DNA of 64,000 nucleotides, taken from NCBI GenBank assembly GCA_963724415.1, contig CAVRUS010000011.1, forward strand, positions 561 through 64,560, given 5' to 3'. The notes below the pieces were generated by a model that ran no database searches, was not told the origin of the DNA, and worked only from the letters and a program-made list of their open reading frames with translations. Positions 3,390 through 61,850 of the stretch are shown one piece after another. A program made the position numbers and the translations under genes. Origin of the DNA: an uncultured Actinomycetota bacterium. GTDB lineage: Bacteria > Actinomycetota > UBA4738 > HRBIN12. Positions within the stretch are counted from its first letter, which is position 1; each line of letters starts with the position of its first letter.

Positions 3390-3920
3390 ATGGCGCGCAC
3401 CAGGGTCCGCAAGCTGGCCCCTATCGTCATCGGGCTGCTGCTCACCGCCTGCTCCTCCGAGGCGTTCGAATCCTCGCGGCACGGGTACAGCCTGGAGGTG
3501 CCTTCAGGCTGGGAGGTCACGGAGTACCCCGGAACGTGGACGCAGCTCGAGGAGTTCTCGCCGGGGGCAGAGGTTCCGGGGGAGGACGTCGTCGCTCCGC
3601 CGGACCTGTCGTCGTTCCTCGTGAGCAACTCGATGGAGATCCCCTCCGACATGACGGCGGCCGAGTGGCAGGAAGCCTTCGATGCGCTCGTGGCGCCGGC
3701 GCTGACCGAGGAGTGCCCCGGTACGACGGCAAGCGACGTCGTCGCGGGCGAGCCGGCGGCGGCGGTGGAACAGCCGTGCGAAGGGTCGATCATCGTCGGG
3801 CGGCGTCTCACGCACGCAGGACGCGGGTACTACTTCACGATCCGGTTCCCGGCCGATGATGCCGCTGCGAGGGAGACGCTCGAGAGCGTGGTTCAGTCGA
3901 TCGAGTTCATCGACGACTGA
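3390..3920 (+). CDS. putative lipoprotein (LLLTACSS lipobox)
   Basis: ATG at 3390 is preceded by GAGGAGGG. N-terminal MARTRVRKLAPIVIGLLLTACSSE. Its 3' end overlaps the convergent cyclase gene by 14 nt. Confidence 0.65.
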   Translation: MARTRVRKLAPIVIGLLLTACSSEAFESSRHGYSLEVPSGWEVTEYPGTWTQLEEFSPGAEVPGEDVVAPPDLSSFLVSNSMEIPSDMTAAEWQEAFDALVAPALTEECPGTTASDVVAGEPAAAVEQPCEGSIIVGRRLTHAGRGYYFTIRFPADDAAARETLESVVQSIEFIDD

Positions 3921-7410: not shown

Positions 7411-7510
7411 GTCGAAACCTCTCCTCGCCGGGGGCCGAAGCGTACCCGGAGCCTTCGAGGACCGCGCTAGGCGTGGCGTCAGCCCTTTGACACTCCCTCA
7501 GCGCGAGCGC

Positions 7511-10647: not shown

Positions 10648-11685
10648 TCAGATAGCGATCGCTGAACTCGGTGTTGAGCTCGACCCACATCGGGAGGTGA
10701 TCGGACATCTGGTAAGTGCGCCAATCCCGGTAGTAGCGCTCCTTGCCTGCTTCATCGCGGTGTTGCCCCTGGACGACGTCTCATAGGCGCCGCCCATGTC
10801 GTCGATGTAGGTCATCTCGTCGTCGTCTTTGTACACCGAGTCGTAGTAGTTGAAGACGCCGCCCTTCGCCTCCTTGAGCTGATCGGCAGCATCCATCGTG
10901 ATGAATGCGATCTGGTCATAGAACTTCGTGCGCGGCGCGTTGGACGGAAGCTCCTTGAGTCCTTCCGGCACGACGAACCCCGCATCGAGGAGGGCCTTCA
11001 TCGTCAGGTCCTCCGGCGAGAAGATGTTGAAGTCTCCGAGCAGGATCATGTTGGGAGCCCACGCGAACGGCTCGTTCGCACGCGCGGCGAGGAACTCCGC
11101 GAGCAGACCGATCTCAGCCACGCGACGCGGATCCTCCGCCACAGCGCTGCCATACAGGATGTGCGTGGTGCAGATCGTGAACGCGAACCAGCCGACCCGG
11201 AATCCGACGATGAACGGCGTCCGGGCGAGCTGGTCGGCGGGGCGGTACTCGCCTCCTCCCATCGCGATCGGGGGGATCACGACCTCGCCGGCGAGGCCGC
11301 CGAAGGAGACCTTGCGTTCGTCGTACAGGAACGCCATGCGTTCCTAGTTGCCCGGCATCCCTTCCGTGACGTCGGTGAGGATGTACCGCCACCACCGGCC
11401 GAGGTAGTAGCGGAGTCGGTTCAGTGCTTGCAGATCGTCGCGGACCTCCTGGATCGCGACGACGTCGAATCGGCTGACGATCTCCGCGATATATAGGAGC
11501 GACTCCTGTGACCGCTCGCCGTACTTGGGCGAGTCGAACTCCCGGATGTTCCACGTCGCGAGGAGCAGGTTGTCGATCGTGCGACGTGGGATCTGGTGAT
11601 CGAGCTCGTCCTTGACCGTAAGGAGGCGATCGGCCGTTCGACGATCGCGATCACTGGCCGGGTCCAGGTCCGTGTATGAGGGCAT
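10648..11685 (-). pseudogene. endonuclease/exonuclease/phosphatase (EEP) family protein interrupted by an in-frame TAG at 11341-11343
   Basis: The N-part LLATWNIREF (11344-11685) and the C-part MILLGDFNIFSPED (10648-11337) are in the same frame, separated by a single amber codon (..GMPGN*ERMAFLY..). Confidence 0.7.
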
Positions 11686-11690
11686 GGTCC

Positions 11691-12734
11691 TCAGCCGATA
11701 ACCGGTGAGCCACTCACCGACTGGCTCGGCGACTGGCAATCGACGAAGGCATCGATTCGCATCGGCTCCGAGGGCGAGCTGGTCGAGCCGCTCGTGTTCG
11801 AGCCAGTCACCACAACGCGAACGGCGGGGCAATCGCTCGTCGTCGGGGTGTAGGAAGACATCGTAGCTCCGACGATATCCGTGCAGCCGTCCGGACCGTC
11901 CTCAGAGCGACAGGCGCCCTGCCACTGGTACGTGAGGTCCGGCGGGGGTGAGCCAGCCCAATCGCCTCCGATCGCCACGAAGGTCGGTTCACGATCGTCG
12001 ATGAAGGGTTCTCCTTGGGGAAGCGGGATGAGGCCGAGGGCGGCTGCCTGCTGGGCGAAGACCACCTCGTCTGGCGGGTTGAAATTGACGCTGACGAGCC
12101 TTGACTCTCCCGTGTCGAACGAGTGCTCGAGACCCATCCCCGGAGGGATCAGCCACGTCTGACCGTTCGGATCGATGGCCTCTACCGACCCCGCGAAGGT
12201 GGAGACCACGAACACGGGGTCGGCGTCGCAGGTCGTGCTGATCTGTACTGCGTCTGAGACCAGGAGCGTCCCCAAGCCGCAGAGGTCTTCTTGGCCACCG
12301 GCCTTGAACGTGCACAGTGCCCGACCACCGAGGATCCGGAACACCGTATTTTCCTGTTCGCGGGTGACCGCCGAGGCGATCTTCCCGGTCCCTGGGTCTT
12401 GACTGAATTGACACAGGGCGAGCTGACCGAACGCGAGGTCGACCACTCCGCTTCGGTCCACCCGCAGCCGCGTCAGGCAGGCGACCTGTCGGCGTTCCGT
12501 GAGTTCCGCAAAGGAGCCGCCGTCCGGCGGCAGGATCTCGATGAGTCCGCCGCCTGGATCTGCGAAGTCGTCATCGAACACGCACTCGGGTGAGTCCGAG
12601 TCGGTGGGCGACGGGGTCGCTGTCGTGGTCGACGTCTGCGTGTTCGACGGGGTGTTCGAACCCGATCCTCCCCCGGCGCAAGCCGCGAGCAGAACGAACT
12701 GCGCGACGAGGACGATCGAGCGCTTACCCCACAC
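11691..12734 (-). CDS. putative secreted lipoprotein (LLAAC lipobox), Cys-rich
   Basis: GTG start with an upstream GGAGG. N-terminal MWGKRSIVLVAQFVLLAACAGG followed by a Thr/Ser-rich linker. Confidence 0.6.
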   Translation of the reverse strand: MWGKRSIVLVAQFVLLAACAGGGSGSNTPSNTQTSTTTATPSPTDSDSPECVFDDDFADPGGGLIEILPPDGGSFAELTERRQVACLTRLRVDRSGVVDLAFGQLALCQFSQDPGTGKIASAVTREQENTVFRILGGRALCTFKAGGQEDLCGLGTLLVSDAVQISTTCDADPVFVVSTFAGSVEAIDPNGQTWLIPPGMGLEHSFDTGESRLVSVNFNPPDEVVFAQQAAALGLIPLPQGEPFIDDREPTFVAIGGDWAGSPPPDLTYQWQGACRSEDGPDGCTDIVGATMSSYTPTTSDCPAVRVVVTGSNTSGSTSSPSEPMRIDAFVDCQSPSQSVSGSPVIG

Positions 12735-12827
12735 TCACGTGCCTCCGACGGTGCCAGGCGTCAACGAGTGCCTTCTCCCAGCGCCGCAGGCTGGCCATCA
12801 GGCCTTGCACAGCCACGCCGAGCGGCG

Positions 12828-14277
12828 TTACCACGAACACCCCGACGAAACCTCCCAACAACGGGACGATGATTCCCGGGTCGCGATCCACTCGGACGGG
12901 ACGAGCTCGCCCGTTTCGGTCAGAGCGCTCGTGGTGGTGACCGAGTGCATGAAGAGCGATTGCTGTCCAGTTTCAAGTTTGAGAGTGGCAGCGAACGGAT
13001 CGCTGGGATCGGCCTCGAGCGTGAGGACCGCGGGCGACGAGAACGCAGTCGCATCGCCGGGGGATAGGACGATCTGTCCCGAGAGTCCCTCCAGATCGGC
13101 GCGCGCCCCGTAGGCTTTCAGGGTCAACCCGTCGACGGAGCGGAGCTCGAACGTTGGCGGAACACCTCCCTCGCCCGACCCGATGACCAGATGAAGTGAG
13201 CCCTCGCATCGGGTCACCGCTTCCTCGCCCGTGAACTCGACCAGCGACGTGAGGTCTCCTCGCGATACCTCGAGCGTGACGCCTGGCCCGGGCGCACTGA
13301 AGCACAGACTCGGCGTCGATCGCGTGCGGGTGAAGAGCGCGACCCCGATGGGATCCGGGAGCGAGCCGAAGGGCGCGATGTCAAGGCTCCGCCCTTCTAC
13401 CCTGGCGCCGCCGCTGGAAACGTATTGCGGGCTCGACCACGTGAGCTCGACTGGCGTCCTCGCGATCCGGACCTCTCCGTCCACGCACTCGCCATCTAGG
13501 TCGTCCGCCAACCTGTCGCATCTCGTGTCCGGCAGCGGAAGGAGGACCACCGCCGTTCCGTCCGTCGCCCCGCTTACCGCGAGCTCTCGGACGTATCCGC
13601 CCTCGAGCGACCAGCGTACGGATCCGGGACCTCCCCTCATCGTGAGGTGACGGAGCGTCGTGACGCTCTGCGTCGTCACGGTGGCCGCCACCGGCGGTCG
13701 CCAGTCGTGGAGCACGTTGTACCCGGTGATGGCAAGGCTCGCGCCCACCATCGCGAGGATCAAGGCGAGGACGCCTGAGGTGCTCGATGCCTGGGGCCGA
13801 GATTCCCGAAATGCGCTCGCGAGGATCGCACGATCCTCAGGGGTGAAGACTGGCCGTCGCGCGCCACCCCAGAACTCGTCGTGTTCCTGGAGATCGGAGG
13901 GGTAGATCCACGCCTCCTTCACCCGTCCATTGGCCATCGAGAACCGGACGCATTGCCGATCGCTCAACGCCCGCCCGTTCCTGGAGGCCGTGAGGTGTTG
14001 CCACGCCACCAGGTCCGGTCCGCGCTCCGATACGTCCTCGAGCTCGATCCGGACGCTGTCGTCCGAGAGTTCGCCGAGCGAACGGAAGTACGCATCGATC
14101 TTCTCGACGCCGGCGAACGTCCCTGCGACGCGGCTGCGTCCCGGGACGTGCAGGACGGCGTCCGGCGCGAAGACGAGATCTCCCCGCGAATCGCCACTGA
14201 GGAACGAGGCGTAGTCGCGCTCGAAGTCTGAGCGTCGGCGCGACCGCGCCGGTTGGCGGGTTCGTCCACAGCGCACG
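12828..14277 (-). CDS. SnoaL/NTF2-like domain / TM / extracytoplasmic domain protein (start uncertain)
   Basis: DYASFLSGDSRGDLVFAPDAVLHV...ANGRVKEAWIYPSD is a SnoaL-like fold, followed by the TM helix VLALILAMVGASLAITGY and a domain of about 300 aa. The upstream 130 aa of ORF 12828-14630 are RG-rich and rejected. The GTG at 14277 is a guess. Confidence 0.55.
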
Positions 14278-14593
14278 ATGGTTCGCCCCCTGGTCGATGC
14301 GCTCCGGAGTCTGCTACCGATGGGAACCGACGTCCCGTGGTTCTTTCGGGGGACAGAGGAAGCACTATTGATTCGGCATGACGTAGGCGTACGGTCACGG
14401 AGCGGGGGTGGACCGTGGCGTTCGATTTCGCGTACGAGCAGGAGCTCGAGAACGAGGCTCGCGGACGGGCCCGGGCTGGAAGCCGGGGACGCCTCTCCGC
14501 ACCCGACCCTCCGACTACCCAGGAACCATCGTTCCACTCGTGGTCCAGGGGGAGACGCTCGGGGGATACGTCTTCGATGAAAGGAGGCCCTGA

Positions 14594-15298
14594 TTGAACG
14601 CTTACGAGCAGGGGCAGTGGCGAGCGACACATAAGAACGGACAGATCCCTCGTGGTGAGCTCGCGGAGATCCCCGGCGATCAAGACAAGGATCTCCTAGG
14701 GCCGGCCCTCATGCATCCCGAGGCCACATGGAACTTCCAACGCATGCGGGAGGCGGCCAAGCACGTCGGCGTGAACCTGGAGATCTCGTACAGCTACCGC
14801 ACCTACGAGAAGCAGGTGCACAAATACGAGATCTTCAAGAACGGCGGGAATCTCGCCGCCACCCCCGGCACCTCGAATCACGGGTGGGGCCTCGCGCTGG
14901 ATCTCAGCATCCCCGAGTACCCGGCGGCGAATAGCAACGCGCAGTTCAAGTGGCTAAAGGCCAATGCTCTTCGATTCGGTTTCCACAATAACGATGCTTC
15001 GTCCGAACCATGGCATTGGGACTACGAAGGCGGACATCCTATGGAGGAGGACCAGATGACCCCGGAAGAGAAGGCGGAGTTCGAGGAACTGAAGAAGTTG
15101 GTCGCGGACCACGAGAAGCTCATCACGGCGTTGCGCGAGGGTTTGGGCTCGGCCGACGACCCCGCGGCGTTCTTGGGGGCAGGCAACCGCGTCGCGACTT
15201 CGGTTCGGAGGTCCGAAGAGGAGAAGAAGGAAAACAGCGACGGTGATGATGGGGCGAAGAAGGCAAAGGGTGCCAAGGGTGTGAAGACGCCAGGCTGA
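14594..15298 (+). CDS. M15B/VanY-like D-Ala-D-Ala carboxypeptidase (peptidoglycan peptidase)
   Basis: Motifs SNHGWGLALDL and SEPWHWDY. TTG start with AAGGAGG 6 nt upstream. GC is clearly lower, with a Lys-rich tail. Confidence 0.8.
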   Translation: MNAYEQGQWRATHKNGQIPRGELAEIPGDQDKDLLGPALMHPEATWNFQRMREAAKHVGVNLEISYSYRTYEKQVHKYEIFKNGGNLAATPGTSNHGWGLALDLSIPEYPAANSNAQFKWLKANALRFGFHNNDASSEPWHWDYEGGHPMEEDQMTPEEKAEFEELKKLVADHEKLITALREGLGSADDPAAFLGAGNRVATSVRRSEEEKKENSDGDDGAKKAKGAKGVKTPG

Positions 15299-15334
15299 AC
15301 AGTGCCCTTCCGGTCGGCGCCGAACGAGAGGGCG

Positions 15335-16165
15335 ATGTCCGATCCATCGACTCTGCCGATGAGAGGCAGTGGCACGATGCGAGCAGAGGCGGAACGGCTC
15401 GCGTGCTTCCCTGGGGAACGGCTCGAGTTCCGCGCGTGGCCTGGATCCAACCGCCGGGACGAGGACATCGAGTGGTCGGGGGGTGGTGCCCCCACCGCGG
15501 CGAGCGGCCGCACGTTCCGTTCATCGTTCGAACGCGCCGGCGCCCACACCGTTCGCGCTCGCTGCGGCGAGGCAGCGGTCGAGTTCGTCGTCACCGTGTG
15601 CCCTGTGGCCGACTGGATCGCGGAGGCGGCCGAGTTCTACGGACCGTCCCTCGACCTCGAGGGCATCCGCGTCAAGTCCAGCCGTTTGGTCCTGGGCAAG
15701 AGTGGCACGGGTTTCACCTGCAACCGGGTGATCCGTTTCAAGCGGCCACGGACCGAAGCGGATCTCCCCTCATCGTCCACCCTCGTGCACGAGCTCGGCC
15801 ACGTCTGGGAGCACCAGGACGGACGCGCGCAACTGGTGCGCGGGCTCGTCGAGCAGGTGGGGAGATGGTTCGGGCGGGATCCGTACGACTACGGCGGTCC
15901 GGCTGGCACGGCTGCGACGACGGACCTGTCGTCGCTGCGTCTGGAGAGCCAGGCGCAGATCATCCAGGAACTGTGGCGAGCTCGCCACGGCGCTCCCGAG
16001 GACAGGCGTGAGAACGCCTTCACGCCCACCTACGTCGCAGACCTGCAGCGGCTCGTCGACGGGGCGGGGATCGGCACGAGGCCACCCCGTGGGAGGACGG
16101 CCGCGTCCACGATCGACGGTGTCGTCGCAGGAATCGTCAACGTCGTGGTAGACCTCGCGGGTTGA
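15335..16165 (+). CDS. HExxH zincin-like protein (DUF4157-like)
   Basis: TLVHELGHVWEHQDG resembles the HELxHVxQ signature. The ATG at 15335 is preceded by GAGAGGG. Confidence 0.5.
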   Translation: MSDPSTLPMRGSGTMRAEAERLACFPGERLEFRAWPGSNRRDEDIEWSGGGAPTAASGRTFRSSFERAGAHTVRARCGEAAVEFVVTVCPVADWIAEAAEFYGPSLDLEGIRVKSSRLVLGKSGTGFTCNRVIRFKRPRTEADLPSSSTLVHELGHVWEHQDGRAQLVRGLVEQVGRWFGRDPYDYGGPAGTAATTDLSSLRLESQAQIIQELWRARHGAPEDRRENAFTPTYVADLQRLVDGAGIGTRPPRGRTAASTIDGVVAGIVNVVVDLAG

Positions 16166-16194
16166 CGGATCACGTCGCGGGAAGGGAGCGATCC

Positions 16195-17962
16195 ATGACC
16201 GACGAGCACCATCGAGCGGGCGCCTCAGAGGCTCCTCCACGACCGAAGGATGAGTCCGGGCCCGAGCTGGAATTCACTCGACGCCCGCGGATGGTCCGGT
16301 GGCTGTCGCCGACGCAGCTCGTTCACACGGGACGTCAGGCGCTCTTCGCCGTCCTGATGTCGGGCTACTCGGACAAGCGAGAGATCCAAGCGGCGCTCCC
16401 GTCGCCGGGTGTCGTCGACCGCTCCGACAACGACGCGATCTGGATCGACTTCGTCTCCGACCTCGGTGACGGCTTCAATCCCACGTACACGCTCGCATAC
16501 CTTCTGGCCAAGCCGTCCCTCGATCTTCCCGATCCCAAGCCCCGCGGAAGCATCCTCGTGATGGGCGGCGATCAGGTGTATCCGGTCGCGAGCCAGAAGC
16601 GCTATCGGAACAAGCTGGTCGGTCCGTTCCGAGCAGCGCTCCCGTACCTCGCCGAGGATGAGCCGGAGCTGTTCGTCGTCCCGGGCAACCACGATTGGTT
16701 CGACGGGCTCACGTCGTTCATGCGCGCCTTTTGCCAACGGGGATGGGTCGGAGCGTGGAGGATGCAGCAGACGCGCTCGTACTTCGCGGTCAAGCTCCCG
16801 CATCACTGGTGGCTCTGGGGAGTGGACATCCAGTTCGACAATTACATCGACTGGCCCCAGCTCGAATACTTCCTCACGGTGGCCGAGGGCGTGCAGAAAG
16901 GCGACGGGGTCATCGTCTGTCTCGCCAAGCCGAGCTGGGTCGACGCGAACGCCGCGGAACCCAACCCTGGATCCGGACGTGTATGCGACGTTCGACTACC
17001 TCGAGCGGAAGGCGATCATCGCCCGCGGAGCGTCGATCCCGCTGGCGATCAGCGGCGACCGGCATCACTATGCCCGGTACGAGGAACGCTCCGACGGACA
17101 TCGTCAGCGCATCACGTGTGGAAGCGGCGGTGCCTTCCTCTCCGATACCCACGGCCTTCCCGATCCGATCGTGGTGCCGCATCCAGAGGCGAGCAGACGA
17201 TCCCCCACGCCGCCAAGCACCTACTCGCTCGAGAAGCGCTACCCGGAGAAGCGCGACTCCATCAAGCAGGCGCGGCTCCATGTCTGGTCCCTGCTCTGGC
17301 GCAATGACGCGTTCCCGGTGCTCGTCGGCGCCGTGGCCTTCGTCTTCGCTTTGCTGGGACGAGGCGCGATCGCTCAGGGCGGGCAGTCGCTCTGGGCGAT
17401 GCCCGATGACTGGTGGCGGCGCGTCCTCACGTGCCTCATCGCCGGGTTGCTCCTCCTCGCGCTGGTCGGGTTCACGAAACACGCGCAGCTCCTCCGTGCC
17501 TGGGGGCTCGGGCTTCTCCACACGGTCATGCATCTCGCAGCGATCGCCGCCACTGCGTGGGCGGCCAGTGGCATCGTGCACGCCTGGGGGCCCGGTCTCT
17601 CGAAGGACTGGCATATCGGCCTGACGCTCGGCGGCACCTTCGTGCTGTATGCGATCGTGGGCTGCGAGATCTTCGCCCTCTATCTCCTGATCGCCGACGG
17701 ATTCCGCATGAACCGTACGGAGCTCTTCGCCGCGATGCGGGTGCAGGACCGCAAGGGCTTCCTGCGGATGAAGATCGACGCTGAGGGGTGCACCGTCCAT
17801 CCCGTGAAGGTCGAGAAGGTCCCTCGGAAGTGGCGGTTGCAGCCCACGGGCGGACCCAGTGACCCGTGGTTCACGCCCGTCGACCGCCGATCCGGTCCCG
17901 GAGCTGATCGAGCCACCGTTCCTCGTCCCTCGTGGTGGTCCGGAACCTCGGAGGGGAGCTGA
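16195..17962 (+). pseudogene. calcineurin-like metallophosphoesterase with C-terminal membrane region, frameshifted near 16950-16975
   Basis: GDQVYP and GNHDW are in frame 1. SGDRHHYARY and four TM helices are in another frame (ORF 16658-17962). The total length is not a multiple of 3. Confidence 0.7.
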
Positions 17963-17963
17963 C

Positions 17964-20395
17964 ATGACCAGACTCTCGTGGCCCATCGAGAACATCAAAC
18001 GCCAGTACGAGGTCGTCGTGGTCGGTTCGGGATACGGCGCGTCGATCGCCGCTTCCCGACTCGCTCGCGTGGGGCGGCGCGTCTGCGTGCTCGAGCGCGG
18101 CCGCGAATGGCAGACCGGCGAGTACCCGGACACCCTGCGCGAGGCCGCTGCACAGATGCAGGTCGACGCTCCCGGCGGACGGTGGGGGTCCACGACCGGT
18201 TTGTATGACTTCCGCGTGAACGACGAGATCGACGTGTTCCTCGGCTGCGGGCTCGGCGGCACGTCGCTGGTGAACGCTGGCGTCGCGCTGCGGGCCGATG
18301 ACCGCGTGTTCGACGACGACCGTTGGCCGAGTGTGTTCCGAGACCCGAACGCGCTCACGGATGGATACGAGCGGGCCACCGCCATGCTCCGGCCCTCCCC
18401 GTACCCACGGGCATCGAGCCTGCCCAAGCTCGATGCGCTCGAGGTTTCGGCCGACCACCTCAGCGAAAGCGGGGTATCCCGCTGCCTTCGACCGGCCGCC
18501 GATCAACGTCCACTTCGGCGAGGCCGGGCCCAACCATGTCGGCGTCTACCAGCAACCGTGCACGCTGTGCGGCGACTGCGTGTCGGGCTGCAACTCCGCC
18601 GCGAAGAACACGCTGATCATGAACTACCTGCCGGACGCGAGGAACCACGGTGCCGAGATCTACACCCGGACGTGGGTGCAGCGACTCGAACGACGGGACG
18701 ATGGCCGTTGGGTCGTCCACTTCCAGCTCCGGGATGCGGGGCGCGAGACCTTCGACGCGCCGACCCTGTTCGTGATCGCGGACATCGTCGTCCTGGGTGC
18801 CGGCGCGCTCGGCTCCACCGAGATCCTGCTGCGCTCCCGGGACGCGGGACTCCCGGTCTCGGACGAGCTCGGAACCCGCTTCACCGGCAACGGCGACGTG
18901 CTCGCGATCGGCTACAACAACGACCGCGAGATCGAGGGCATCGGCTACGGGGCTCGGTCGGTGGATCGCGAAGGAGCCCGTGGGGCCCTGCATCACCGGC
19001 ATCATCGACCTGCGGGGCAGCCCCCGGCTCGAGGACGGGTTCGTGATCGAGGAGGGCGTGATCCCCGGCGCGCTGTCGAGCCTGCTCCCAGAGGTTTTCG
19101 CCGGCATGGACGCGATAATGGGCGAGGACACGGATCGCGGGCTCAAGGACTTCCTGCTCGAGAGCGCGCGCGAGCTCGGAGGCCTGTTCCGCGGGCGCGA
19201 GAGCGGTGCGCTGCGCAACACCCAGACCTACCTGGTGATGTCCCACGACGACGGTCAGGGGCGCATGCGGCTCGAGGACGATCGCCTCCGGATCTCCTGG
19301 CCGGACGTGGGTGAGCAGTCGATCTTCCGCACCGTGAACGAGCGCCTCCGGCAGGCGACGGCCGCGCTCGGGGGCCACTTCGACGAGAACCCGTTGTGGA
19401 CGAGGCTGTTCGGCCACGATCTCGTCACGGTGCATCCCCTCGGCGGGTGCGTCATGGCAGACGACGCCGGCGGCGGCGTGGTCAACGATCGGGGTCAGGT
19501 GTTCTCCGGGGCCACGGGGGACGGTGTCTACGAGAGCCTCTACGTGATGGACGGCGCGGTGATCCCGCGCCCGATCGGCGTCAACCCGCTCCTCACGATC
19601 TCGGCGGTGGCCGAGCGCTCGGTCGCGCTGCTCGCGCGCGACCATGGCTGGCCGGTGGACTACGACTTCGAGGAGCCGCCCGTCGTCGCCGCGGGCGCCC
19701 CTGCTCGGCTCGGCGTGGAGTTCACGGAGACGATGCGGGGCGCCTTCGCCATGCGCGAGGCGGCGGGAGAGCCGACACGGGAGGACTACGAGCGCGCGGC
19801 TGCCGAGGGCGTACGGATCGCCCGCGCCGGGCACGACGCCGCCCGGATGCAAGGCCGGCCGGCGACGACGGCCGATTTCCCCGGCGGCGGGGCCTTCGAG
19901 TTCACGCTCACGATCACGTCGAGCGACCTCGATGCCATGATCGGTGACCCGGATCACGCGGCGACGATGGTCGGTACGGTCCGCGCCTCTACGCTGTCAC
20001 CCGATCCGCTGATGGTGACGAATGGGCGGTTCAACCTCTTCCTCGACGACCCGACGAACGAGCGGCGCAAACGTATGCGGTACCAGATGGACCTCAGCAG
20101 CGAGGACGGCACGGCCTACACGTTCGAGGGGTTCAAGGAGATCGCGGACGATCGCGGCGTCGATGTGTGGACCGACACCACCACGCTCTACGTCACGATC
20201 CGGGAGGCGGGACGGGTGGACGGACGGGTGGGACTCGGGATCCTGCGGATCAGCCCGAAGGACTTCATGCGCCAGCTCACGACGATGCGCGCGATCGGCG
20301 CCAGAGGGGTCCTCGAGGCGGCCGAGGCGAAGGTGCGGTTCGGACGGCTGTTCGCCGGCGAGCTGCAGGAGGTGTACGGAGCGCTCCTGGTCTGA
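17964..20395 (+). pseudogene. cholesterol-oxidase-like GMC oxidoreductase with a C-terminal extension of about 200 aa; two frameshifts (about 18470 and about 18960)
   Basis: YEVVVVGSGYGASIAASRLARVGRRVCVLERGREW is the FAD Rossmann motif. GVYQQPCTLCGDCVSGCNSAAKNTL and the C-terminal part lie in two other frames. The SD GGAGGGGAG precedes ATG 17964. Confidence 0.75.
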
Positions 20396-20404
20396 TCCGG
20401 TCGG

Positions 20405-21949
20405 TCAGACGCCGTGGTAGGAGTCCCAGAGCTGGCCCAGGTACCAGGAGCCGAACGTGGCGAGCGTGGCGGCCCGCTCGGCGATCGAGTCCGTGTTCGT
20501 CGCGTGCATGCTCGACACGAGCTTCGCGACGTCCCCGACGTCCAGCCGGAGCACCCCGGCGCCTGCGACCGGCCCGCTCGCGTCGTCGCCTTCGTGCAGG
20601 GTGGCCGGGATCGTCGTGATGTCACCCCATATGTCGGCGCCGGGGTCGTCGCGCAGATGCGCTCGCCCGGCGACGCGGTAGCTCCGCCCGCCGTGCTCGA
20701 AGGCGAGCTCGTACACCACCTCCTTCGCGTCGGGCTCGTCCGACGGCGCGAACAGGTTGAAGAGCCCGTCGACGCACGGGAGTCGGTCGCCGAAGGCGGG
20801 GAACGAGAGGTCTCCCGTCAGGGAGCCTGCGTGCTCGGGGTCCGACACGAACCGCTCGACGTCGTCGACGTCGATGTTGGCCCTGAGCGCGAGGGTCGTC
20901 CCGTCGGCCTGGCCCTTCGCCGCCCCCTCGGCGGGATCGGTCGCACCCAGCGCGAAAGGCCCGGTCATCGTCTCGCTGAACATCACACCACGACGCCCAC
21001 CGGCCATCCGAGTGACATCGGGGGTCAGCGCGAGTCCCTCCTCGGCCGCCGATGCCAGGTAGCGCTTCGCATCGCGGTACCCCATCGAGATCAGTGCGTC
21101 GGCGTCGATCCGCCCCTCGTAGAGATCGGGGTCGAGGGGGAGCGGCGAAGCGGGTTTGACCACGTGGAGCCGGATCGGCCGTGTCTGCCCGAAGGCTCCC
21201 TCCCCTTTCTCGATGCGACCGTTCAGCTCGCGGATACGATCCAGGTCCTCGAACAGCGCGCCGTTGGCCGACAGCTCGATCATGTGCACGTACTGGCGGA
21301 ACGGGCCCGGGTGATACTCCGGCTCGTTGCCGATGCACCAGACGAGCCAGATCTCCTCGGCTCCCCGGCGCACGGCTTCCCAGAGGTTGGCGTCGCGGAT
21401 CCAGACCGAATCGACGTAGGTGGCGTCGCCGCGCCGCACCGGGGGCATGAAGATCGGCAGTGAGATCCCGGCGACCAGCAGGTCGAGGTCGACGTCGGTG
21501 TGGTCGATCGCTTCGTTCGTCTTGGTCGTGTAGTTGCACACGTTGAACGTGCCCTGGATGCCCCGCGCGGCTCGGATCGAGTCGACGTCGACTCCCAGGT
21601 CGGGGAAGACGTGCCCCACGATGCCGTCGGCGTCGCCGAGGGCCATCAGATGCGAGGCCCGGACGTAGTCGGCGAGGGGCGCGAACGACACGAAGTCGCG
21701 GACGTTGAGCCGCCGCCACCGATCGCACATCTCGGGCGGTGTGAGCCCCGAGAGCAGCATCGCGAGGTTGATCGTCCCGCCCGAAGTCCCGTCGGCGTGG
21801 AAGAACACGAGCCCAGCGTCGACCAGCGCCCGGATCGCGCCTGCCTGGTAGGCGACCCGCATCCCGCCACCCGCCAGGACGAGGGACCGCCTCGGCCCCG
21901 TGTCGCCCTCTGGAGCGGCCCCGCTGGGCACGTGCGGCTCGGCGGTCAT
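20405..21949 (-). CDS. patatin-like phospholipase with a C-terminal domain homologous to the GMC protein C-terminus
   Basis: LVLAGGGMRVAYQAGAIRAL is the oxyanion motif and DGTSGGTINLAML is GxSxG. The C-terminal 200 aa align with the C-terminus of 17964-20395. Start taken at MTAEPH; the upstream RG-rich part is rejected. Confidence 0.8.
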   Translation of the reverse strand: MTAEPHVPSGAAPEGDTGPRRSLVLAGGGMRVAYQAGAIRALVDAGLVFFHADGTSGGTINLAMLLSGLTPPEMCDRWRRLNVRDFVSFAPLADYVRASHLMALGDADGIVGHVFPDLGVDVDSIRAARGIQGTFNVCNYTTKTNEAIDHTDVDLDLLVAGISLPIFMPPVRRGDATYVDSVWIRDANLWEAVRRGAEEIWLVWCIGNEPEYHPGPFRQYVHMIELSANGALFEDLDRIRELNGRIEKGEGAFGQTRPIRLHVVKPASPLPLDPDLYEGRIDADALISMGYRDAKRYLASAAEEGLALTPDVTRMAGGRRGVMFSETMTGPFALGATDPAEGAAKGQADGTTLALRANIDVDDVERFVSDPEHAGSLTGDLSFPAFGDRLPCVDGLFNLFAPSDEPDAKEVVYELAFEHGGRSYRVAGRAHLRDDPGADIWGDITTIPATLHEGDDASGPVAGAGVLRLDVGDVAKLVSSMHATNTDSIAERAATLATFGSWYLGQLWDSYHGV

Positions 21950-22016
21950 CGGACCGGAGTCGAGGAGAGCCCTTCTGGGGGCCTCGAGCGCGCCGGCCGG
22001 GTCGCGAGGGAGATGT

Positions 22017-22430
22017 TCACCGTCGGATGCGCCTCCAGAACGCGAGTCCGAGCGCCCCGGACAGGAGGTCGAACCCCGCCACCAGCAGCGCCACCCCGGA
22101 GAACACGCCGCGAGCGACGCCGATCCCGACCGCCGCCGAGGCACCCACCTTCTGGAGGGCGGCCCAGAAGACGACGATGGGGTGCTCCGCCCGGTCCAGG
22201 AGCGCGTGGATCAGCATGCCGCCGAACAGCACCATGAACATGCCGACCGTGGCGAACAGCTGTCGGGTCGCCTCCGTGTTCTCGACCGAGAGCCGGTCCA
22301 GCACGAAGCCGGGAGCCACGATCTGGGTGAGGCCGGAGGCCACCGTGATCGCCGCGATCGCGAGGAGAACGAGACGGAGCGGGTCTGCGACCAGGCGCCG
22401 CCGCACGCCAACCGCCGCCGGATCGCTCAT
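22017..22430 (-). CDS. small membrane protein
   Basis: 137 aa with 3-4 TM helices. Its start overlaps the stop of the upstream gene in a TGATG arrangement. Confidence 0.55.
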   Translation of the reverse strand: MSDPAAVGVRRRLVADPLRLVLLAIAAITVASGLTQIVAPGFVLDRLSVENTEATRQLFATVGMFMVLFGGMLIHALLDRAEHPIVVFWAALQKVGASAAVGIGVARGVFSGVALLVAGFDLLSGALGLAFWRRIRR

Positions 22431-22894
22431 CACCGCGCCCGCACCGCGAAGAAGATCGCCATGGTGAGCCACTCCGTGCTCCACAGCCCCACCCGGATGG
22501 ATGTCAAAGACTTCCATCGGCGCAGCGCCTCCTCGAGCTCCGCCGGGTCGGTGATCCCTTCGGCCATGCGCCGGTTGATCGGCAGGATCAGGGTCACCGT
22601 GAGCGCGGCGCTCCCGACGACCAGCGTCAGGACCAGGATCGGGACCCAGACCAGCCCGGTGCCCCACTCCGCCACGAGCATGATCCCGGCGGTGGCGATC
22701 ATGATGGTGGTCAAGGCCGTGAACACCCGCAGGGCCGCCTTCACCTGTGGCACGAAGTGCAGGTAGTAGTTCTCGACCGTGAGGTGCGGAGTGATCGGGA
22801 AGGAGAACAGCACAGTGGACCACCCGGTCCCGAAGTACATGGACGCGCCCATGAGGAGGACCACCTCGTCGACCAGGACCAGCGTCCGCGTCAT
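22430..22894 (-). CDS. small 4-TM membrane protein (possibly DUF1772-like)
   Basis: 154 aa and hydrophobic. Translationally coupled to 22017-22430. Confidence 0.55.
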   Translation of the reverse strand: MTRTLVLVDEVVLLMGASMYFGTGWSTVLFSFPITPHLTVENYYLHFVPQVKAALRVFTALTTIMIATAGIMLVAEWGTGLVWVPILVLTLVVGSAALTVTLILPINRRMAEGITDPAELEEALRRWKSLTSIRVGLWSTEWLTMAIFFAVRAR

Positions 22895-22900
22895 GCCGGT

Positions 22901-23788
22901 TCAGCGCACGAGCTCGTCGTCGCCATACGGAGCCTTCGGCGGGTCGAGCCAGTCCTGGCTCAGCCCGAGGTCGAACACGCTCTCCATCCCTTCGCCCGGC
23001 TGCGGCGTCCCCTCCCAGCTCAGGAACCACGCCTCGAAGTGGTCGTCGAGGGCCCCGGAGAAATCGCCGAGGTACGCGGTGAAGACGGGCTTGGGGTCGA
23101 TGTGAAGCTCCTTCAGCGGCTGGACCCGCGGGTGGTTCCCGAGGTACATGCGCGCTATCGCGCCGCCGCCGAGCCCGACCTGCATGTGGCCCTTGAAGTA
23201 GACGCCGGACTTCATGAGCATGCCGCGGAAGCGGCAGTAGTTGATCGCACCGATATCGAGCGGGATCCGGAACCCTCCCGGCCGGTCGATCTCGATGCGC
23301 ATCCCGAGCATCCCATCCTTGTCGTACTGGCTGCTCACGACCTGGTCGGAGACTTCGAAGTCCAGGTTGGCCTGGTGCTTGGGCATGCCCCAGATCCCCT
23401 TGCCCCCTTTGACCGAGATCTCGCTGCTGACCGGGAGGTCCACGACGTACTGTCCGGTGCCGAACCAGCGCCGGAACAGCGCCGGCACCAGGGGCGGCGC
23501 CGGCCCGCCCCCGTGCGTGCAGGCGATCGCGATGCTGAACTCGACGTACTTGCCGATGTCGGTGAACCGGTAGTTCACGACCGTGATCACGAGCACGGCG
23601 TGACCCCCGAGTCGGAACGGGTGGAGCTCGTTGCCGGGGAGCATGGCAGCGGCTCGGCGACGGTCGATCCGGAAGGCGGCCATGAGCGCGCCCGTCTTCA
23701 CGGAATCGACGGGGAGCCGGAACGGGATCCCGTCCACCAGCGCGTTGCGCCCGGCCTGGGCCTTGATGCGACGCGGCATGGCGGTCAT
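22901..23788 (-). CDS. acetoacetate-decarboxylase-like (ADC fold) family protein
   Basis: The C-terminal 295 aa of ORF 22901-24391, from MTAMPRRIK, resemble ADC-like proteins. The upstream RG-rich part overlaps the neighbouring gene and is rejected. Confidence 0.45.
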   Translation of the reverse strand: MTAMPRRIKAQAGRNALVDGIPFRLPVDSVKTGALMAAFRIDRRRAAAMLPGNELHPFRLGGHAVLVITVVNYRFTDIGKYVEFSIAIACTHGGGPAPPLVPALFRRWFGTGQYVVDLPVSSEISVKGGKGIWGMPKHQANLDFEVSDQVVSSQYDKDGMLGMRIEIDRPGGFRIPLDIGAINYCRFRGMLMKSGVYFKGHMQVGLGGGAIARMYLGNHPRVQPLKELHIDPKPVFTAYLGDFSGALDDHFEAWFLSWEGTPQPGEGMESVFDLGLSQDWLDPPKAPYGDDELVR

Positions 23789-23820
23789 CCGCGGCACCTC
23801 GAAGGGGTCATCTTCATCGG

Positions 23821-24879
23821 CTACCTCTTCAGCTCGTCGAGCATCAGTGGGAACACGTCGCGTGCCGCGTCCTTGCCCATGAATACGTCCAGGTGGCTGT
23901 AGTTCGGCAGCACGCGCAGAGAGTGGTAGTTGGGGCGCCGTCGATCGAACAGCTCGAAGGTCCGCTCCTGGCTCTCCGCCGAGAAGCACCGGTTGAGCTT
24001 GCCGGCGAAGAACGCGAACCTCGCGTCCGTTTGCGGCGGCTGGGCGAGGAAGTCGGCGGGAAGCGCAGGCAAGCCTTCGACCGAGACGAGACGTCCGCGT
24101 TGGACGCACTGCGCCATCTGCTCGAAGAACGTCATCGGGACGAACCCGAACTCCGAGCGGAGCCATTCGTGCGTCTCGCCATTGAGGTTCTCGTGCCGCC
24201 AGAGCGCCGGGAAGCCCGTGCCGTACGTGAAACTGACCATCCGGCAGACAGTGTTGTCGCACTCGTGGTGGAACGCGCGCACGAGCAGCACCATGATCTT
24301 CGCGAACGTCGTCGGCGCCTCGACGCCCCAGTGGGGGTCCATGTACCTCGACGCCATCTTCACGAGCGGCGTCAGGTACCGGATCTTCCATCGCGAGACC
24401 ATCGGGATGACCGGGTGCAGCGAGACCGCGTTCGTGACGATCGTCGTGACCTCAGGCACCAGGCCGGCGACGGCCGACATCATGAAGCTCGTCGAGCCCT
24501 GGCAGTGGATGATCGCTTTCATCTCGTCGCTGCCGGTCTCGCGCAGCACCGTGCGCACGGCCTCCGGGTGGTCGTACGCGGCGGCGCGATCGAGGGTCCA
24601 CTCGTTCGGGGCGAAGTCGATGCTGGCGCGCCAGTTCTCGAGCCAGACGTCGTAGCCCTCCTCGACGAGCACGTTGACGAGGTTCGACCGGACCGGCGCC
24701 CGGAAGACGTTCGCGCGGACGCCGGCACCGTGGACGAGCATCACCGGCCCGCGGTCGGGCGGGCGCGAACCACGGACGTTGATGACGTTGCCCTCGTGCC
24801 CGTCCGCCGTCGTGAAGCGCACGACGCGGCCAGGCCCGGTCGCGGCCGCTCCCGCTGCGTTCGGCGCGCCCTCAGGCAT
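23821..24879 (-). CDS. alpha/beta hydrolase (lipase-like)
   Basis: Start at MPEGAP with GGAAGGA upstream. IIHCQGSTSF is the nucleophile elbow, and there are a Gly-rich oxyanion region and a C-terminal His. Confidence 0.65.
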   Translation of the reverse strand: MPEGAPNAAGAAATGPGRVVRFTTADGHEGNVINVRGSRPPDRGPVMLVHGAGVRANVFRAPVRSNLVNVLVEEGYDVWLENWRASIDFAPNEWTLDRAAAYDHPEAVRTVLRETGSDEMKAIIHCQGSTSFMMSAVAGLVPEVTTIVTNAVSLHPVIPMVSRWKIRYLTPLVKMASRYMDPHWGVEAPTTFAKIMVLLVRAFHHECDNTVCRMVSFTYGTGFPALWRHENLNGETHEWLRSEFGFVPMTFFEQMAQCVQRGRLVSVEGLPALPADFLAQPPQTDARFAFFAGKLNRCFSAESQERTFELFDRRRPNYHSLRVLPNYSHLDVFMGKDAARDVFPLMLDELKR

Positions 24880-25082
24880 CCGATGTCCTTCCCGCCGCGT
24901 GGACCGATCGAGGTGTGCCCGACCGGCGCGCCGGCACTGCACCCGCGAACAGTACGACCGCCCGTTCGCGTGGCGCAAATCCTTGCCATGTTCGGCCGCC
25001 GCTCTTCGGGCGGCGCTCTGATCCACGTATCGCATTGCCGTAGGTTCCATGGCCTACGAGAGCCAGCCGACGGGATGCCCTC

Positions 25083-25219
25083 AGGACACGCCGGCGGAGG
25101 GTCCCGAAGGTGTGACGGCAGCCGACCTCGTCGCCGTCCGCGGCGGGTCGGAGGTGACGATCGCCCCTCGAAAGCTTCGATGGTCAGGTGAGCGTCCCGA
25201 TCCGGGTCGACGCCTGAGG
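25083..25219 (+). repeat. degenerate copy (about 85% identical) of the 3' end of gene 7511-8026, with a 1-nt indel
   Basis: Compare 7890-8029 (..gagggtcccgaagg..gtcggaggtgacgatcgccctcgaaagcttcgatggtcaggtgagcg..) with 25082-25219. Confidence 0.7.
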
Positions 25220-25556
25220 ACATCGGAGGGAGAGATGACCGGGTCGAAGGAGTCGTCGGCCATCTAGGTCGCCGGACCTCTTCCGGGTTCGACCCCGAAC
25301 GGGGGCGAACCTACACTCGCGAACATGCAGCGTCGCAGCGGAGGACGCAGCCTCGGGTCGGTCTATCGCCTCGACCCGTTGACGTTCGAGGGGGAGAGGA
25401 TGCCCGTAGGCGCGGAGGTGCTCGGCGTCGCCGTGGACGAAGCCGCCGACTCTCTGTGGGTCTACGTCGGTGAGTCCTCGGATCCGAGCCCCGAGTGAGC
25501 CAGAGTCGAACGGGTGTGCTGCATCGCGACGCGGCTGCTCCAGGAGGTCGCGCGGA

Positions 25557-26009
25557 TCAGTTCCGGTCCGAGACCTCGGCGGCGATCTCCCCGGCGCGCC
25601 GATAGCTGAGCTCGGCGCCGAGCCGGAGGAACTCCCGGATCCCGGCGAGCTGTTCCGCCGTGAAGCGGCTGCCCGAGGCGAGCCATGCGGCGGCAACGGG
25701 ACCCCAGGCGTGCTCGGCGAGCTCGCGGAAGCGCTCGGTCGTCTCGACCAGGACCCGGCGCCGGTCGGAGGGATCCGCGAGGCGCTGCACGTAGCCGGCT
25801 CGCTCGAGGCGGTCGAGCACCGCGGTGATCGCGCCGGTGGTCAGCCGACTCTCTTCGGCCAGACGGCCCGCGGGGACCGTGCCGAGCCTGGCGAGGATGT
25901 CGAGGCAGATCACGTCGGTCCGATTCACCCCGAGCCACTCGGCGATCGCGGCGTCCATCGCGTCCGCGGCGTTCTGGTTGATCCGCATCTCCGTGATGAT
26001 CTCGGCCAT
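25557..26009 (-). CDS. MarR family transcriptional regulator
   Basis: 150 aa from MAEIITEMRINQ. The winged-HTH region TTGAITAVLDRLERAGYVQRLADPSDRRRVLVETT is present. It is divergent from the epoxide hydrolase gene. Confidence 0.8.
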   Translation of the reverse strand: MAEIITEMRINQNAADAMDAAIAEWLGVNRTDVICLDILARLGTVPAGRLAEESRLTTGAITAVLDRLERAGYVQRLADPSDRRRVLVETTERFRELAEHAWGPVAAAWLASGSRFTAEQLAGIREFLRLGAELSYRRAGEIAAEVSDRN

Positions 26010-26126
26010 CTCGTCACGGCGGGATAGGCGAGAGCGCCTTGACGGTCGAGTATCTTGAGAAGTAAGATTCTTAGACATCGTGGGGATGATACCCCAGCCG
26101 CGAGGAGAAGGGAAGGAGCCAGCTCG

Positions 26127-27254
26127 ATGACCGGCACCGACACCGAGATCCGCCCGTTCCGCATCGACATCCCGCAGGCCGACCTCGACGACCTCCGGGC
26201 TCGCCTGGACCGCACGCGCTGGCCCGACGAGCTGCCCGGCGTCGGCTGGGACTACGGGGTGCCGCTCGGCTACGTGAAGGAGCTCACCGAGTACTGGCGC
26301 GCGGGCTACGACTGGCGCGAGTGGGAGAGCAGGCTCAACGCGTACCCGCAGTTCACCACCACGATCGACGGGCAGAACGTCCACTTCCTGCACGTCCGGT
26401 CGCCCGAGCCGGACGCGCTGCCCGTCATCCTCACGCACGGGTGGCCGGGCTCGATCGTGGAGTACCTCGACGTCATCGACCGGCTGAGCGATCCGAGGGC
26501 GCACGGAGGCGATCCGAGCGACGCGTTCCATCTGGTGATCCCGTCGCTCCCCGGGTACGGGTTCTCCGGTCCCACCCACGAGGCCGGCTGGACCAACCCA
26601 CGCATCGCGAAGGCCTGGGCGGTGCTGATGGGCCGGCTGGGCTACGACCGCTACGGCGCCGTCGGCAACGACGCGGGCTCGATGATCAACCCCGAGCTGG
26701 GGCGGCACGACCCCGAGCACGTGCTCGGCGTCCACGTCACGCAGATCTTCTCGTTCCCGACCGGTGACCCGTCGGAGATGGCGGACCTCACGGAGGAGGA
26801 GCAGCGGGAGCTGGGAACGCTCCAGTGGTTCTACGAGAACAAGATGTCGTTCAACACGCTGATGGCCCAGCAACCGCAGACGCTGTCGTTCGCTTTGCTC
26901 GACTCACCGGTCGGGTTGCTCGCCTGGAACGCGCAGCTGCTCGGCGAGGAGCTGGATCGAGACTTCGTCCTCACGAACGTGATGCTCTACTGGCTGACCG
27001 GAACGGCGGGCTCCGCGGCTCGGCTGTACTACGAGAACGCCCATGCCACGCCGCCGACCGAACCGACCACCGTTCCGATCGGGCTGGCCGCGTTCGCGGG
27101 GGACTTCAGCGGCATCCGCCGCTTCGCGAACCGGGATCACTCGAACATCGTTCGCTGGACGACGTTCGAGGGCGGCGGCGGCCACTACGCGGCGCACAAG
27201 GTGCCCGATCTCCTCGTCGGCGACGTGCGGGAGTTCTTCCGGGACCTGCGCTGA
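26127..27254 (+). CDS. epoxide hydrolase (microsomal-EH-like, EHN domain + alpha/beta hydrolase)
   Basis: [27 protein letters not shown] is the EH N-terminal domain and HGWPGS is the hydrolase motif. The SD GGAAGGAG precedes ATG 26127. Confidence 0.85.
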
Positions 27255-34658: not shown

Positions 34659-34705
34659 GCGGATCCCGCCTCGTCCTCGGGAAGCGCGTGGCATAGGCTC
34701 CACTG

Positions 34706-61664: not shown

Positions 61665-61850
61665 CGCGTTCCTTCCATCGGTAGGACCGGGGGACCTCCT
61701 GCTCGGGTGCCGGGATCCCGGCGCCTCTCGGGAGGCCGCTGCCAACCCTCCGAGGAAAGATGTAGCCGCCCCACGTGACGCGAGGAGGACGGGCGAGGGA
61801 ACGTTCGGTGTCGGCTTCGGCGGCCGAGCCCCGCCACCTATGCTCCTGCC

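Follow-up and report, generated by a model that had tools for sequence, protein, structure and literature searches.

The locus analysed here raises the question of why two enzymes with different catalytic domains should end in the same region, and what this region would do for them. In a window of 64,000 nucleotides from the contig CAVRUS010000011.1 of an uncultured Actinomycetota bacterium (GCA_963724415.1), a cholesterol-oxidase-like GMC oxidoreductase and a patatin-like phospholipase are encoded tail to tail, and a first-pass annotation had proposed that their C-termini share a domain and that the neighbouring genes form a sterol or lipid-processing locus.

Two enzymes with a shared C-terminal domain

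The proposed sharing was borne out by a BLASTP comparison with compositional adjustment, in which the C-terminal 233 and 217 aa of the GMC protein and the patatin, respectively, aligned end to end (78 bits, E=3e-22 against a rejection limit of E>0.01, 68/229 identities, 30% identity). The shared region, hereafter termed X, measures ~210–230 aa, is C-terminal in both convergent proteins, and is one autonomous accessory domain common to both enzymes. Direct reading of the sequence also confirmed that the two genes meet tail to tail, 9 bp apart, with the GMC stop codon (TGA, 20393-20395) and the patatin stop codon (20405-20407, TCA on the + strand) both lying inside a 6-nt inverted repeat (GTCTGA/TCAGAC). 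The locus has a GC content of 66–70% and the two X copies are physically adjacent, as would be expected if their resemblance were trivial, reflecting chance or the composition of a GC-rich genome, or else a recent duplication or gene conversion confined to the adjacent gene ends, but this reading retains next to no probability and is already refuted by the E-value obtained despite compositional adjustment, by the hundreds to thousands of orthologues of each copy in separate subfamilies, by a search that found no DNA inverted repeat of >23 nt linking both X regions, and by the same two-copy layout in co-directional clusters of other phyla. Since the subfamilies represented by X(GMC) and X(patatin) are each kept across phyla, the two copies are old paralogues and did not arise by local duplication.

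The GMC protein belongs to the GMC oxidoreductase superfamily (PF00732/PF05199), with domain matches spread over three reading frames (GMC_oxred_N, 21.2 bits in fragment 1, below the 23-bit cutoff, and 31.1 bits in fragment 2; GMC_oxred_C, 43.3 bits) and a GxGxG motif for FAD/ADP binding (VVVVGSGYG, residues 16–24). Its reading frame is broken twice: it starts in frame 0 (17964 to ~18467), shifts to frame 1 (~18469 to ~18972), and ends in frame 2 (~18974 to 20395). The two single-base insertions (Table 1) were placed by reference to the orthologue of the close relative L081, which is intact (808 aa) and has a start matching position 17964. As the L081 contig is 92–94% identical to the window and the dN/dS of the GMC gene is 0.16, the frameshifts are either very recent or sequencing/assembly errors. 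Both had been overlooked in the first-pass annotation. The part of the gene encoding X lies in an unbroken 532-aa ORF (18797..20395).

The patatin is likewise a clear member of its family, the patatin-like phospholipases (PF01734; 75.7 bits vs a cutoff of 27.7, E=7e-21, residues 88–251 of a 579-aa ORF). Its motifs in the window are LAGGGMRVAYQAG, DGTSGGT, and YVDSVWIRD, and the corresponding residues G29–G31/R33, S58, and D182 are invariant in 28 patatin homologues. A start at 21949 yields a protein of 514 aa, and its homologues have 513–524 aa, including one of 514 aa with 93% identity (P0218). A signal peptide would not fit in either protein, because the FAD motif begins at residue 17 of the GMC protein and the GGGxR motif at about residue 26 of the patatin.

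Table 1. Features of the locus, in window coordinates.
Feature	Position	Strand	Basis
Metallophosphoesterase (MPE), C-terminal multi-TM region	16195..17962	+	Pfam Metallophos, tblastn, hydropathy scan
GMC oxidoreductase catalytic part, cholesterol-oxidase-like	17964..19693	+	Pfam and PDB matches; +1 insertions at ~18462 and ~18968
X domain, subtype T1 (type seen with GMC and ABH)	19694..20392	+	BLASTP vs patatin C-terminus
Spacer between convergent stop codons	20396..20404	.	9 nt tccggtcgg, read directly
X domain, subtype T2 (type seen with patatin)	20408..21028	-	BLASTP, subtype assignment
Patatin-like phospholipase catalytic domain	21029..21949	-	GGGMR oxyanion motif, GTSGG serine, D-S-V aspartate
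memB, small 4-TM membrane protein	22017..22433	-	Hydropathy scan; cluster position kept in several phyla
memA, small membrane protein, weakly Anthrone_oxy/DUF1772-like	22430..22894	-	Pfam E=9.7e-5, below gathering score
Acetoacetate-decarboxylase-like (ADC family) protein	22901..23797	-	Pfam ADC E=1.6e-16
Acid-lipase-like alpha/beta hydrolase (ABH), Cys (H-C-Q-G) at nucleophile elbow	23821..24822	-	PDB acid lipases

The X family and its predicted fold

X is a large family of predicted beta-barrel domains that carries no name and is widespread in bacteria. At E<=1e-3 the family comprises 2,861 representative clusters at 50% identity (861 at E<=1e-30), and a single peptide pattern retrieved at least 591 genomic loci from at least 11 phyla, the best match of this genome scan being 50% identical among the matches listed. 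Taxa carrying the gene cluster described below include Nostocaceae, Cytophagales, Terriglobia, Nitrospira, and Gaiellaceae, among others. The X region matched no Pfam-A or NCBIfam profile, and 30 X members searched against Pfam at E<=1 retrieved no matching family for the domain, apart from isolated weak matches of one or two members (DUF5450, E=0.095; YtkA, E=0.025). DUF3376 (PF11856) is, like X, a C-terminal region of some patatin-family proteins and had been named as a candidate for its identity, a suggestion we reject, as the two window proteins had no match to it at E<=0.01 and the 30 members none at E<=1. A relationship of X to the ADC-like protein of its own cluster was also discarded (hhalign probability 0.7%, E=0.076).

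An AF2 model of the T1 domain (pLDDT 89, pTM 0.85) contains eight long strands and helices, and X is accordingly predicted to be an eight-stranded up-and-down barrel with N- and C-terminal helices. Sequence searches of the PDB with X alone gave no match at E<=10, and a Foldseek search of the PDB with the model gave none at E<=1e-3. The avidin/calycin-type eight-stranded barrels (Cap15 receptor barrel, DUF3237/UPF0311, PDB 3C5O) share 5–14% sequence identity with X, which differs from them by ~100 additional residues, in which a long helix follows strand 1 and the C-terminus forms an amphipathic helix. Invariant polar residues of the family are E12, H88, N114, Y130, and K148, together with a D-x-W-x-D-T-T-T-L loop.

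A conserved cluster and its fusions

All of the neighbours reported at first pass, an ADC-like protein, a lipase-like ABH, and two small membrane proteins, were recovered by Pfam, PDB, and hydropathy analyses. The ABH resembles gastric and lysosomal acid lipases in the PDB (E=5e-8 to 3e-5), and the cysteine at the nucleophile position is found in 23/26 representatives and in at least 64 of 69 ORFs from the loci. A sequence search of the PDB found no relatives of the ADC-like protein or the MPE, and tRNA and Rfam searches of the window gave no match. The MPE gene, which lies immediately upstream of the GMC gene and is part of the same system, was absent from the first-pass annotation. Its Pfam Metallophos match is weak (E=8.8e-4, below the gathering score), its frame breaks near 16960 and changes again near 17879, after which the final ~27 aa no longer follow the L081 orthologue, and the intact 578-aa L081 protein matches the window in two to three frames by tblastn.

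The gene order ABH-ADC-memA-memB-DUF4345-patatin-(MPE)-GMC-X is found again in the close relatives L081 and L082 and also in Bacteroidota, Acidobacteriota, Nostoc, and Nitrospira, and memA is conserved in the cluster. An ABH gene lies within 10 kb of GMC-X in all loci with full 10-kb flanks (42/42), and GMC-X-ABH forms a single ORF in 24 of 80 loci. Judged from this conserved gene content, the core of the cluster is a cholesterol-oxidase-like GMC-X flavoenzyme with an acid-lipase-like ABH whose nucleophile is predicted to be a cysteine, and the extended cluster adds the patatin with its paralogous X, the ADC-like protein, a membrane-anchored MPE, and two or three small membrane proteins. Our search of the literature on this combination of enzyme families returned nothing relevant.

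The fusions of X connect the same proteins. A census of domain architectures found X fused to five enzyme families (GMC, ABH, patatin, ADC, and Metallophos), at the N-terminus, at the C-terminus, or in the middle, in the arrangements GMC-X, GMC-X-ABH, X-ABH, patatin-X, patatin-X-X, ADC-X, and X-metallophosphoesterase, in an MPE-X-ABH fusion (P0110), and as a stand-alone domain. Specific homologues of these fusion partners are encoded, unfused, by the neighbouring genes in the window (41–56% identity): the ADC-like protein is 56% identical to the ADC part of an ADC-X fusion (P0169), the ABH 41.5% identical to the ABH part of an X-ABH fusion (P0178), and the MPE 51% identical to the MPE part of an X-MPE fusion (P0125) and 39% identical to the MPE-X-ABH fusion. 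Transmembrane segments directly follow some X domains (P0122, the P0123 class, and P0125). No Pfam family matched the ~420-aa C-terminal extension of some GMC-X proteins, the membrane protein P0122_C, or memB, the last searched at E<=1.

The role of X

From the homology, fold class, fusion network, and conserved synteny shown above, we infer a coupling role for X, which on balance is probably an accessory module that the soluble enzymes of one conserved lipid-processing cluster, cytoplasmic and membrane-associated, have in common. X would keep these enzymes at a hydrophobic substrate or membrane platform that they share, through binding of a lipid moiety, docking onto partner proteins, or both, and ester/phosphoester hydrolysis (patatin, ABH, and MPE) and alcohol oxidation (GMC) might then proceed in sequence on the same lipid. 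More tentatively, X may be the signature domain of a previously unrecognised multi-phylum membrane-lipid enzyme assembly, in which it would tie the enzymes physically to one lipid substrate or to one another.

Several observations count against this accessory role. Clusters combine X subtypes as T1+T1, T1+T2, T1+T3, or single-X, and we found no consistent pairing rule of the kind that would have argued for X-X docking. The Bacteroidota patatins of the same cluster have a degenerate C-terminal region that the X profile no longer matches, and the model of a patatin-X-X protein (pTM 0.69) does not establish a fixed domain arrangement. The invariant polar residues of X also resemble an active site or a specific ligand site more than a generic docking surface.

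Instead of serving passively in binding or docking, X might be an enzyme in its own right, a beta-barrel isomerase, cyclase, or dehydratase, for example, that takes over the product of the enzyme to which it is attached. We regard a catalytic X as unlikely.

Quite unlikely, too, is a sterol-processing locus in which the GMC protein would oxidise cholesterol, the ABH would hydrolyse steryl esters, and X would bind sterols. The nearest solved relatives of the GMC protein are type I cholesterol oxidases, for example Streptomyces ChoA (PDB 1B4V/4U2L, E=2.5e-28), with which its N-terminal ~560 aa share the GxGxG FAD motif, GMC_oxred_N/C, and the HPLGGC and GVNP motifs (in the phmmer alignment to 4U2L, HPLGGCV with HPLGGCV and GVNPLLTI with GVNPFVTI; the equivalent of Glu361 could not be aligned). 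Homologues are labelled ‘cholesterol oxidase’ in JGI and UniRef, and the nearest solved relatives of the ABH include lysosomal acid lipase/cholesteryl ester hydrolase. However, the frame fragments of the GMC protein, scored separately, reach 56.2, 55.3, and 47.1 bits against the whole-protein cutoff of 850 for the NCBIfam cholesterol-oxidase equivalog (NF058674), and the protein lacks a signal peptide, whereas canonical ChoA enzymes are known as secreted proteins. The cysteine in place of serine at the ABH nucleophile position and the spread of the cluster over many phyla also speak against sterols, and most of the taxa bearing it are not groups known for making or breaking down sterols. The solved ChoA chains (504 aa) end without an X domain and cover only residues 17–557 of the 809-aa GMC protein, which has ~55 extra residues in the stretch separating the two aligned blocks. 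This agrees with the first-pass remark that X was not known as an established partner of cholesterol oxidase. A sterol substrate is not supported. Of the first interpretation, the shared accessory domain, its absence from canonical cholesterol oxidases, and the conserved lipid-enzyme cluster have held, and the DUF3376 and sterol assignments have not.

By analogy with the Cap15 barrel and SAVED, X could also be an allosteric small-molecule sensor that switches on several membrane-damaging effectors in a defence or abortive-infection locus, which we consider very improbable; a PADLOC search with eight cluster proteins returned no match at E<=0.01.

Recognised as a domain family, X would suggest that cyanobacteria, Bacteroidota, Acidobacteriota, Actinomycetota, Nitrospirota, and other phyla have a system for remodelling or catabolising lipids, and its fusions, as “Rosetta-stone” evidence, would tie five enzyme families into one testable pathway. 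Thousands of bacterial proteins whose present labels go no further than ‘GMC family oxidoreductase’, ‘cholesterol oxidase’, ‘patatin-like phospholipase’, or ‘alpha/beta fold hydrolase’ share the unannotated domain and have their genes in a single conserved cluster, and defining the family would correct ‘cholesterol oxidase’ labels that are likely misleading. The consistent cysteine predicted as the nucleophile of an acid-lipase-like hydrolase would be an enzymological oddity.

Patatins with C-terminal accessory domains are known from PlpD, ExoU, VipD, and CapV. X differs from the POTRA domain and 16-strand barrel of PlpD, the helical membrane-localisation domain of ExoU, and the Rab5-binding domain of VipD, and no patatin chain in the PDB includes X, as none aligned with our model over more than ~260 residues. 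A parallel in function may be offered by PLAT/LH2, C2, START, and lipocalin domains, the accessory lipid/membrane-binding domains of lipid enzymes. Although X has no sequence or specific fold relationship to these domains and its lipid binding is putative, so that the comparison is one of how they work, X resembles them in being a compact beta-rich module appended to different lipid-active catalytic domains.

A common C-terminal domain in two convergent genes

The open reading frames named in the first-pass annotation are present in the window, within a locus of 66–70% GC. As it described, the genes of a GMC oxidoreductase and a patatin-like phospholipase are arranged tail to tail, with 9 nt between their stop codons, and the C-termini of their products are homologous (BLASTP of the C-terminal 233 aa of GMC vs. 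the C-terminal 217 aa of patatin, E = 3e-22, 30% identity, both segments aligned at full length). Neither chance nor duplication explains the resemblance of this ~210-aa domain, here called X: no DNA-level inverted repeat joining the two X-coding regions was found, and X(GMC) and X(patatin) are different subfamilies, each kept across phyla, which rules out an origin by local duplication. The tail-to-tail layout is not itself conserved. Both convergent stop codons lie inside a 6-nt inverted repeat (GTCTGA ... TCAGAC) around the 9-nt spacer (20390..20410), and there is too little space between the genes for a conventional terminator.

X matched no Pfam-A or NCBIfam model, nor did 30 diverse members at E ≤ 1, so the earlier suggestion of a DUF3376-type domain is rejected; PDB sequences also yielded no match. 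In line with the earlier remark that X was not known as an established partner of cholesterol oxidase, the canonical Streptomyces enzyme aligns to GMC residues 17–557 only, which uses up its 504-aa solved chain and makes X an addition beyond that enzyme. In an AlphaFold2 model built from a 30-sequence alignment (pLDDT 89, pTM 0.85), the first of eight long strands is followed by a long helix, and the C-terminus forms an amphipathic helix. Strand 1 bears the conserved motif F-[TS]-E-x-M-x-G and the last helix F-G-x-x-F-x-x-x-L-x-x-x-Y; also conserved are DPxH, G-x-F-N-L-F, a Tyr, G-x-K and D-D-x-G-x-D-x-W-x-D-T-T-T-L. X is a real, ancient and autonomous domain, a beta-barrel according to the AlphaFold2 model. 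The Pfam and NCBIfam copies searched contain no family model for it, and neither a closely related solved structure nor any literature was found.

Architectures and genomic context of X

A search with an X profile against 1.84 billion representative proteins recovered 2,861 clusters with X at E ≤ 1e-3 (861 at E ≤ 1e-30), and a single peptide pattern yielded at least 591 genomic loci, those listed belonging to Actinomycetota, Cyanobacteriota, Bacteroidota, Chloroflexota, Acidobacteriota, Nitrospirota, Myxococcota, Latescibacterota, Desulfobacterota, Gemmatimonadota, and Fibrobacterota. Clustering of the X-flanking regions and Pfam scans of representatives showed, besides the two lipid-active catalytic domains that carry X in the window, further partners: a metallophosphoesterase (MPE, Metallophos), an acid-lipase-like alpha/beta hydrolase (ABH) and an acetoacetate-decarboxylase-like (ADC-like) protein. 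In addition to the forms of the window, GMC-X (~790 aa) and patatin-X (~515 aa), each strongly conserved with 54–63% identity between phyla, we found GMC-X-ABH (~1,135 aa), X-ABH (~575 aa), patatin-X-X (~750 aa), ADC-X, GMC-X-Metallophos, Metallophos-X-ABH, X-Metallophos, X-GMC, GMC-X followed by a transmembrane (TM) segment and a ~420-aa region of no known family, and many stand-alone X proteins (200–230 aa). In P0123, P0170, and P0114 (C-terminal ~420 aa), X precedes a TM helix and two repeats with a GGTGxF motif; this two-repeat region matched no Pfam family, and its motif may resemble dirigent/AOC-type barrels. In P0122, a multi-TM region directly follows X (C-terminal 275 aa). The patatins of seven Bacteroidota loci (L009, L024, L047, L048, L061, L065, L068) end in a ~170-aa region (its start is LNFRSQFSG in L009) resembling a degenerate X, in which the conserved motifs are gone and a match to the X profile is no longer obtained.

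The window neighbours of the GMC/patatin pair are specific homologues of X fusion partners elsewhere. Identity is 51% between the MPE and the MPE portion of P0125, 56% between the ADC-like protein and the ADC portion of P0169, and 41.5% between the ABH and the ABH portion of P0178; the ABH also matched 28 further X-linked ABH flanks. Two close relatives (L081, L082) share the order ABH-ADC-memA-memB-(DUF4345)-patatin-X, convergent with GMC-X, where memA and memB are small membrane proteins. Co-directional clusters, in which the MPE often immediately precedes GMC-X, occur in Flavobacterium and other Bacteroidota, Terriglobia, Nostoc, and Nitrospira. The ABH is near GMC-X in all 42 loci with full 10-kb flanks, the MPE in 14, the ADC-like gene in 10 and the patatin gene in eight, which identifies GMC-X and ABH as the core; the window cluster is an extended form of it. 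Membrane proteins are always present in the cluster.

Features of the window
Feature	Position	Strand	Remark
Signalling ATPase	3907..7497	-	
MPE	16195..17962		C-terminal multi-TM region
GMC-X	17964..20395	+	coding sequence in three frames
Patatin-X	20405..21949	-	intact, 514 aa from ATG at 21949
memB	22017..22433		
memA	22430..22894		
ADC-like	22901..23797	-	
ABH	23821..24822	-	
MarR regulator	25557..26009	-	adjoins cluster
EHN-type epoxide hydrolase	26127..27254	+	adjoins cluster
Signalling ATPase	27285..30473	-	
Signalling ATPase	34697..37300	+	broken
Signalling ATPase	61779..63998	+	

The MarR/epoxide hydrolase neighbourhood is not kept in L081 or L082. Present in L081 but missing from the window are the DUF4345 membrane-protein gene between memB and patatin (22014/22015 in the window vs. 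7471-7835 in L081) and, between GMC and MPE, a Lactamase_B gene plus a 313-aa gene (17934/17939 vs. 11905-14549). The MPE has just 70% DNA identity to L081, unlike the 92–94% over 17939..25027, suggesting a mosaic or recombined segment. GC at third codon positions (GC3) is 0.91–0.95 across the cluster and right flank (18400..27250) vs. 0.79–0.85 in the left genes (11500..18000), a step in composition. The four large paralogous signalling ATPases within the 64 kb are of the zinc-ribbon/adenylate-cyclase/AAA_16(/TPR) type.

Interrupted reading frames

The first-pass annotation overlooked that the GMC coding sequence switches frame at about 18467 and 18972, with Pfam GMC_oxred_N and GMC_oxred_C matching consecutive fragments in different frames. 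The metagenomic contig L081 (92–94% DNA identity over 17939..25027) carries an uninterrupted 808-aa GMC gene, relative to which the window has single-base insertions at about 18462 and 18968. The break is present in the deposited assembly itself, since the gene is called there as a fragment of 450 aa (P0347). Frame-corrected dN/dS vs. L081 is 0.16 for GMC (patatin 0.18, ADC-like 0.20, ABH 0.23), indicating purifying selection on GMC until very recently. Whether indel errors of the assembly or recent decay of the gene caused the break, the X-coding part of GMC is contained in an uninterrupted ORF of 532 aa.

The apparent frameshifts cluster in a small number of genes, namely GMC, the MPE upstream of it (near 16960 and 17879), the adenylate-cyclase/AAA_16 ATPase (34.7–37.3 kb) and an MFS_3 transporter (57.0–58.4 kb), the latter two recognized by consecutive parts of one Pfam model in different frames. 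No frameshifting indel vs. L081 was found in 20.4–24.8 kb, and a GC3 scan gave no frame break in 24.8–30.4 kb. Error-prone assembly and recent decay of individual genes would each account for this pattern. Further possible frameshifts are at 4088-4102 and 45931. As sequenced, the MPE terminates at 17962 in a different frame, 1 nt short of the GMC ATG; its conserved C-terminal peptide (DPVPELIEPPFLVPR) is in the GMC-start frame with no stop codon between (17850..17970), so that one indel would create or destroy an MPE-GMC-X fusion.

Possible role of X and relation to known enzymes

Fusion of X to five enzyme families and its separation from them have occurred repeatedly, and these families are also encoded next to one another, which is classic "Rosetta-stone" evidence for one functional system. 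X may quite possibly mark a previously unrecognised multi-enzyme system, a reading we hold tentatively; the gene cluster appears undescribed so far, and no paper linking its enzyme families was found in the searchable library. We regard X as an accessory module shared by lipid enzymes. As these enzymes are probably lipid-active and cytoplasmic, membrane proteins always accompany them and TM segments directly follow X in some proteins, the most likely role of X is to hold the enzymes at a membrane platform or lipid substrate common to them. Binding of a hydrophobic ligand, within the barrel or at its mouth, might achieve this, as might docking to partners, or the two together. Specific evidence makes each of the rival readings less likely, in which X is a catalytic barrel, the locus a sterol-specific system, or X the allosteric sensor of a defence system; PADLOC models matched none of eight cluster proteins at E ≤ 0.01.

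X offers a solid, testable lead bearing on how thousands of proteins are annotated, with the window case limited by the frame-broken GMC gene of this particular assembly. Databases already list X proteins, either by generic names or as "cholesterol oxidase", the latter probably misleading. Like cholesterol oxidase, the window GMC protein keeps the FAD, HPLGGC and GVNP motifs, but it scores far below the equivalog cutoff and lacks a signal peptide. For the ADC-like protein and the MPE, sequence comparison reveals no relatives of solved structure. The ABH is similar to the acid lipases of stomach and lysosome, whose C-terminal Y-x-H-L-D (histidine) motif it retains; in contrast to them, nearly every member has H-C-x-G at the nucleophile elbow, with Cys, never Ser, at this place (23 of 26 representatives and at least 64 of 69 locus ORFs; P0078-P0203, L001-L082), which suggests a thiol-based chemistry, e.g. 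an acyl-thioester intermediate or transacylation.
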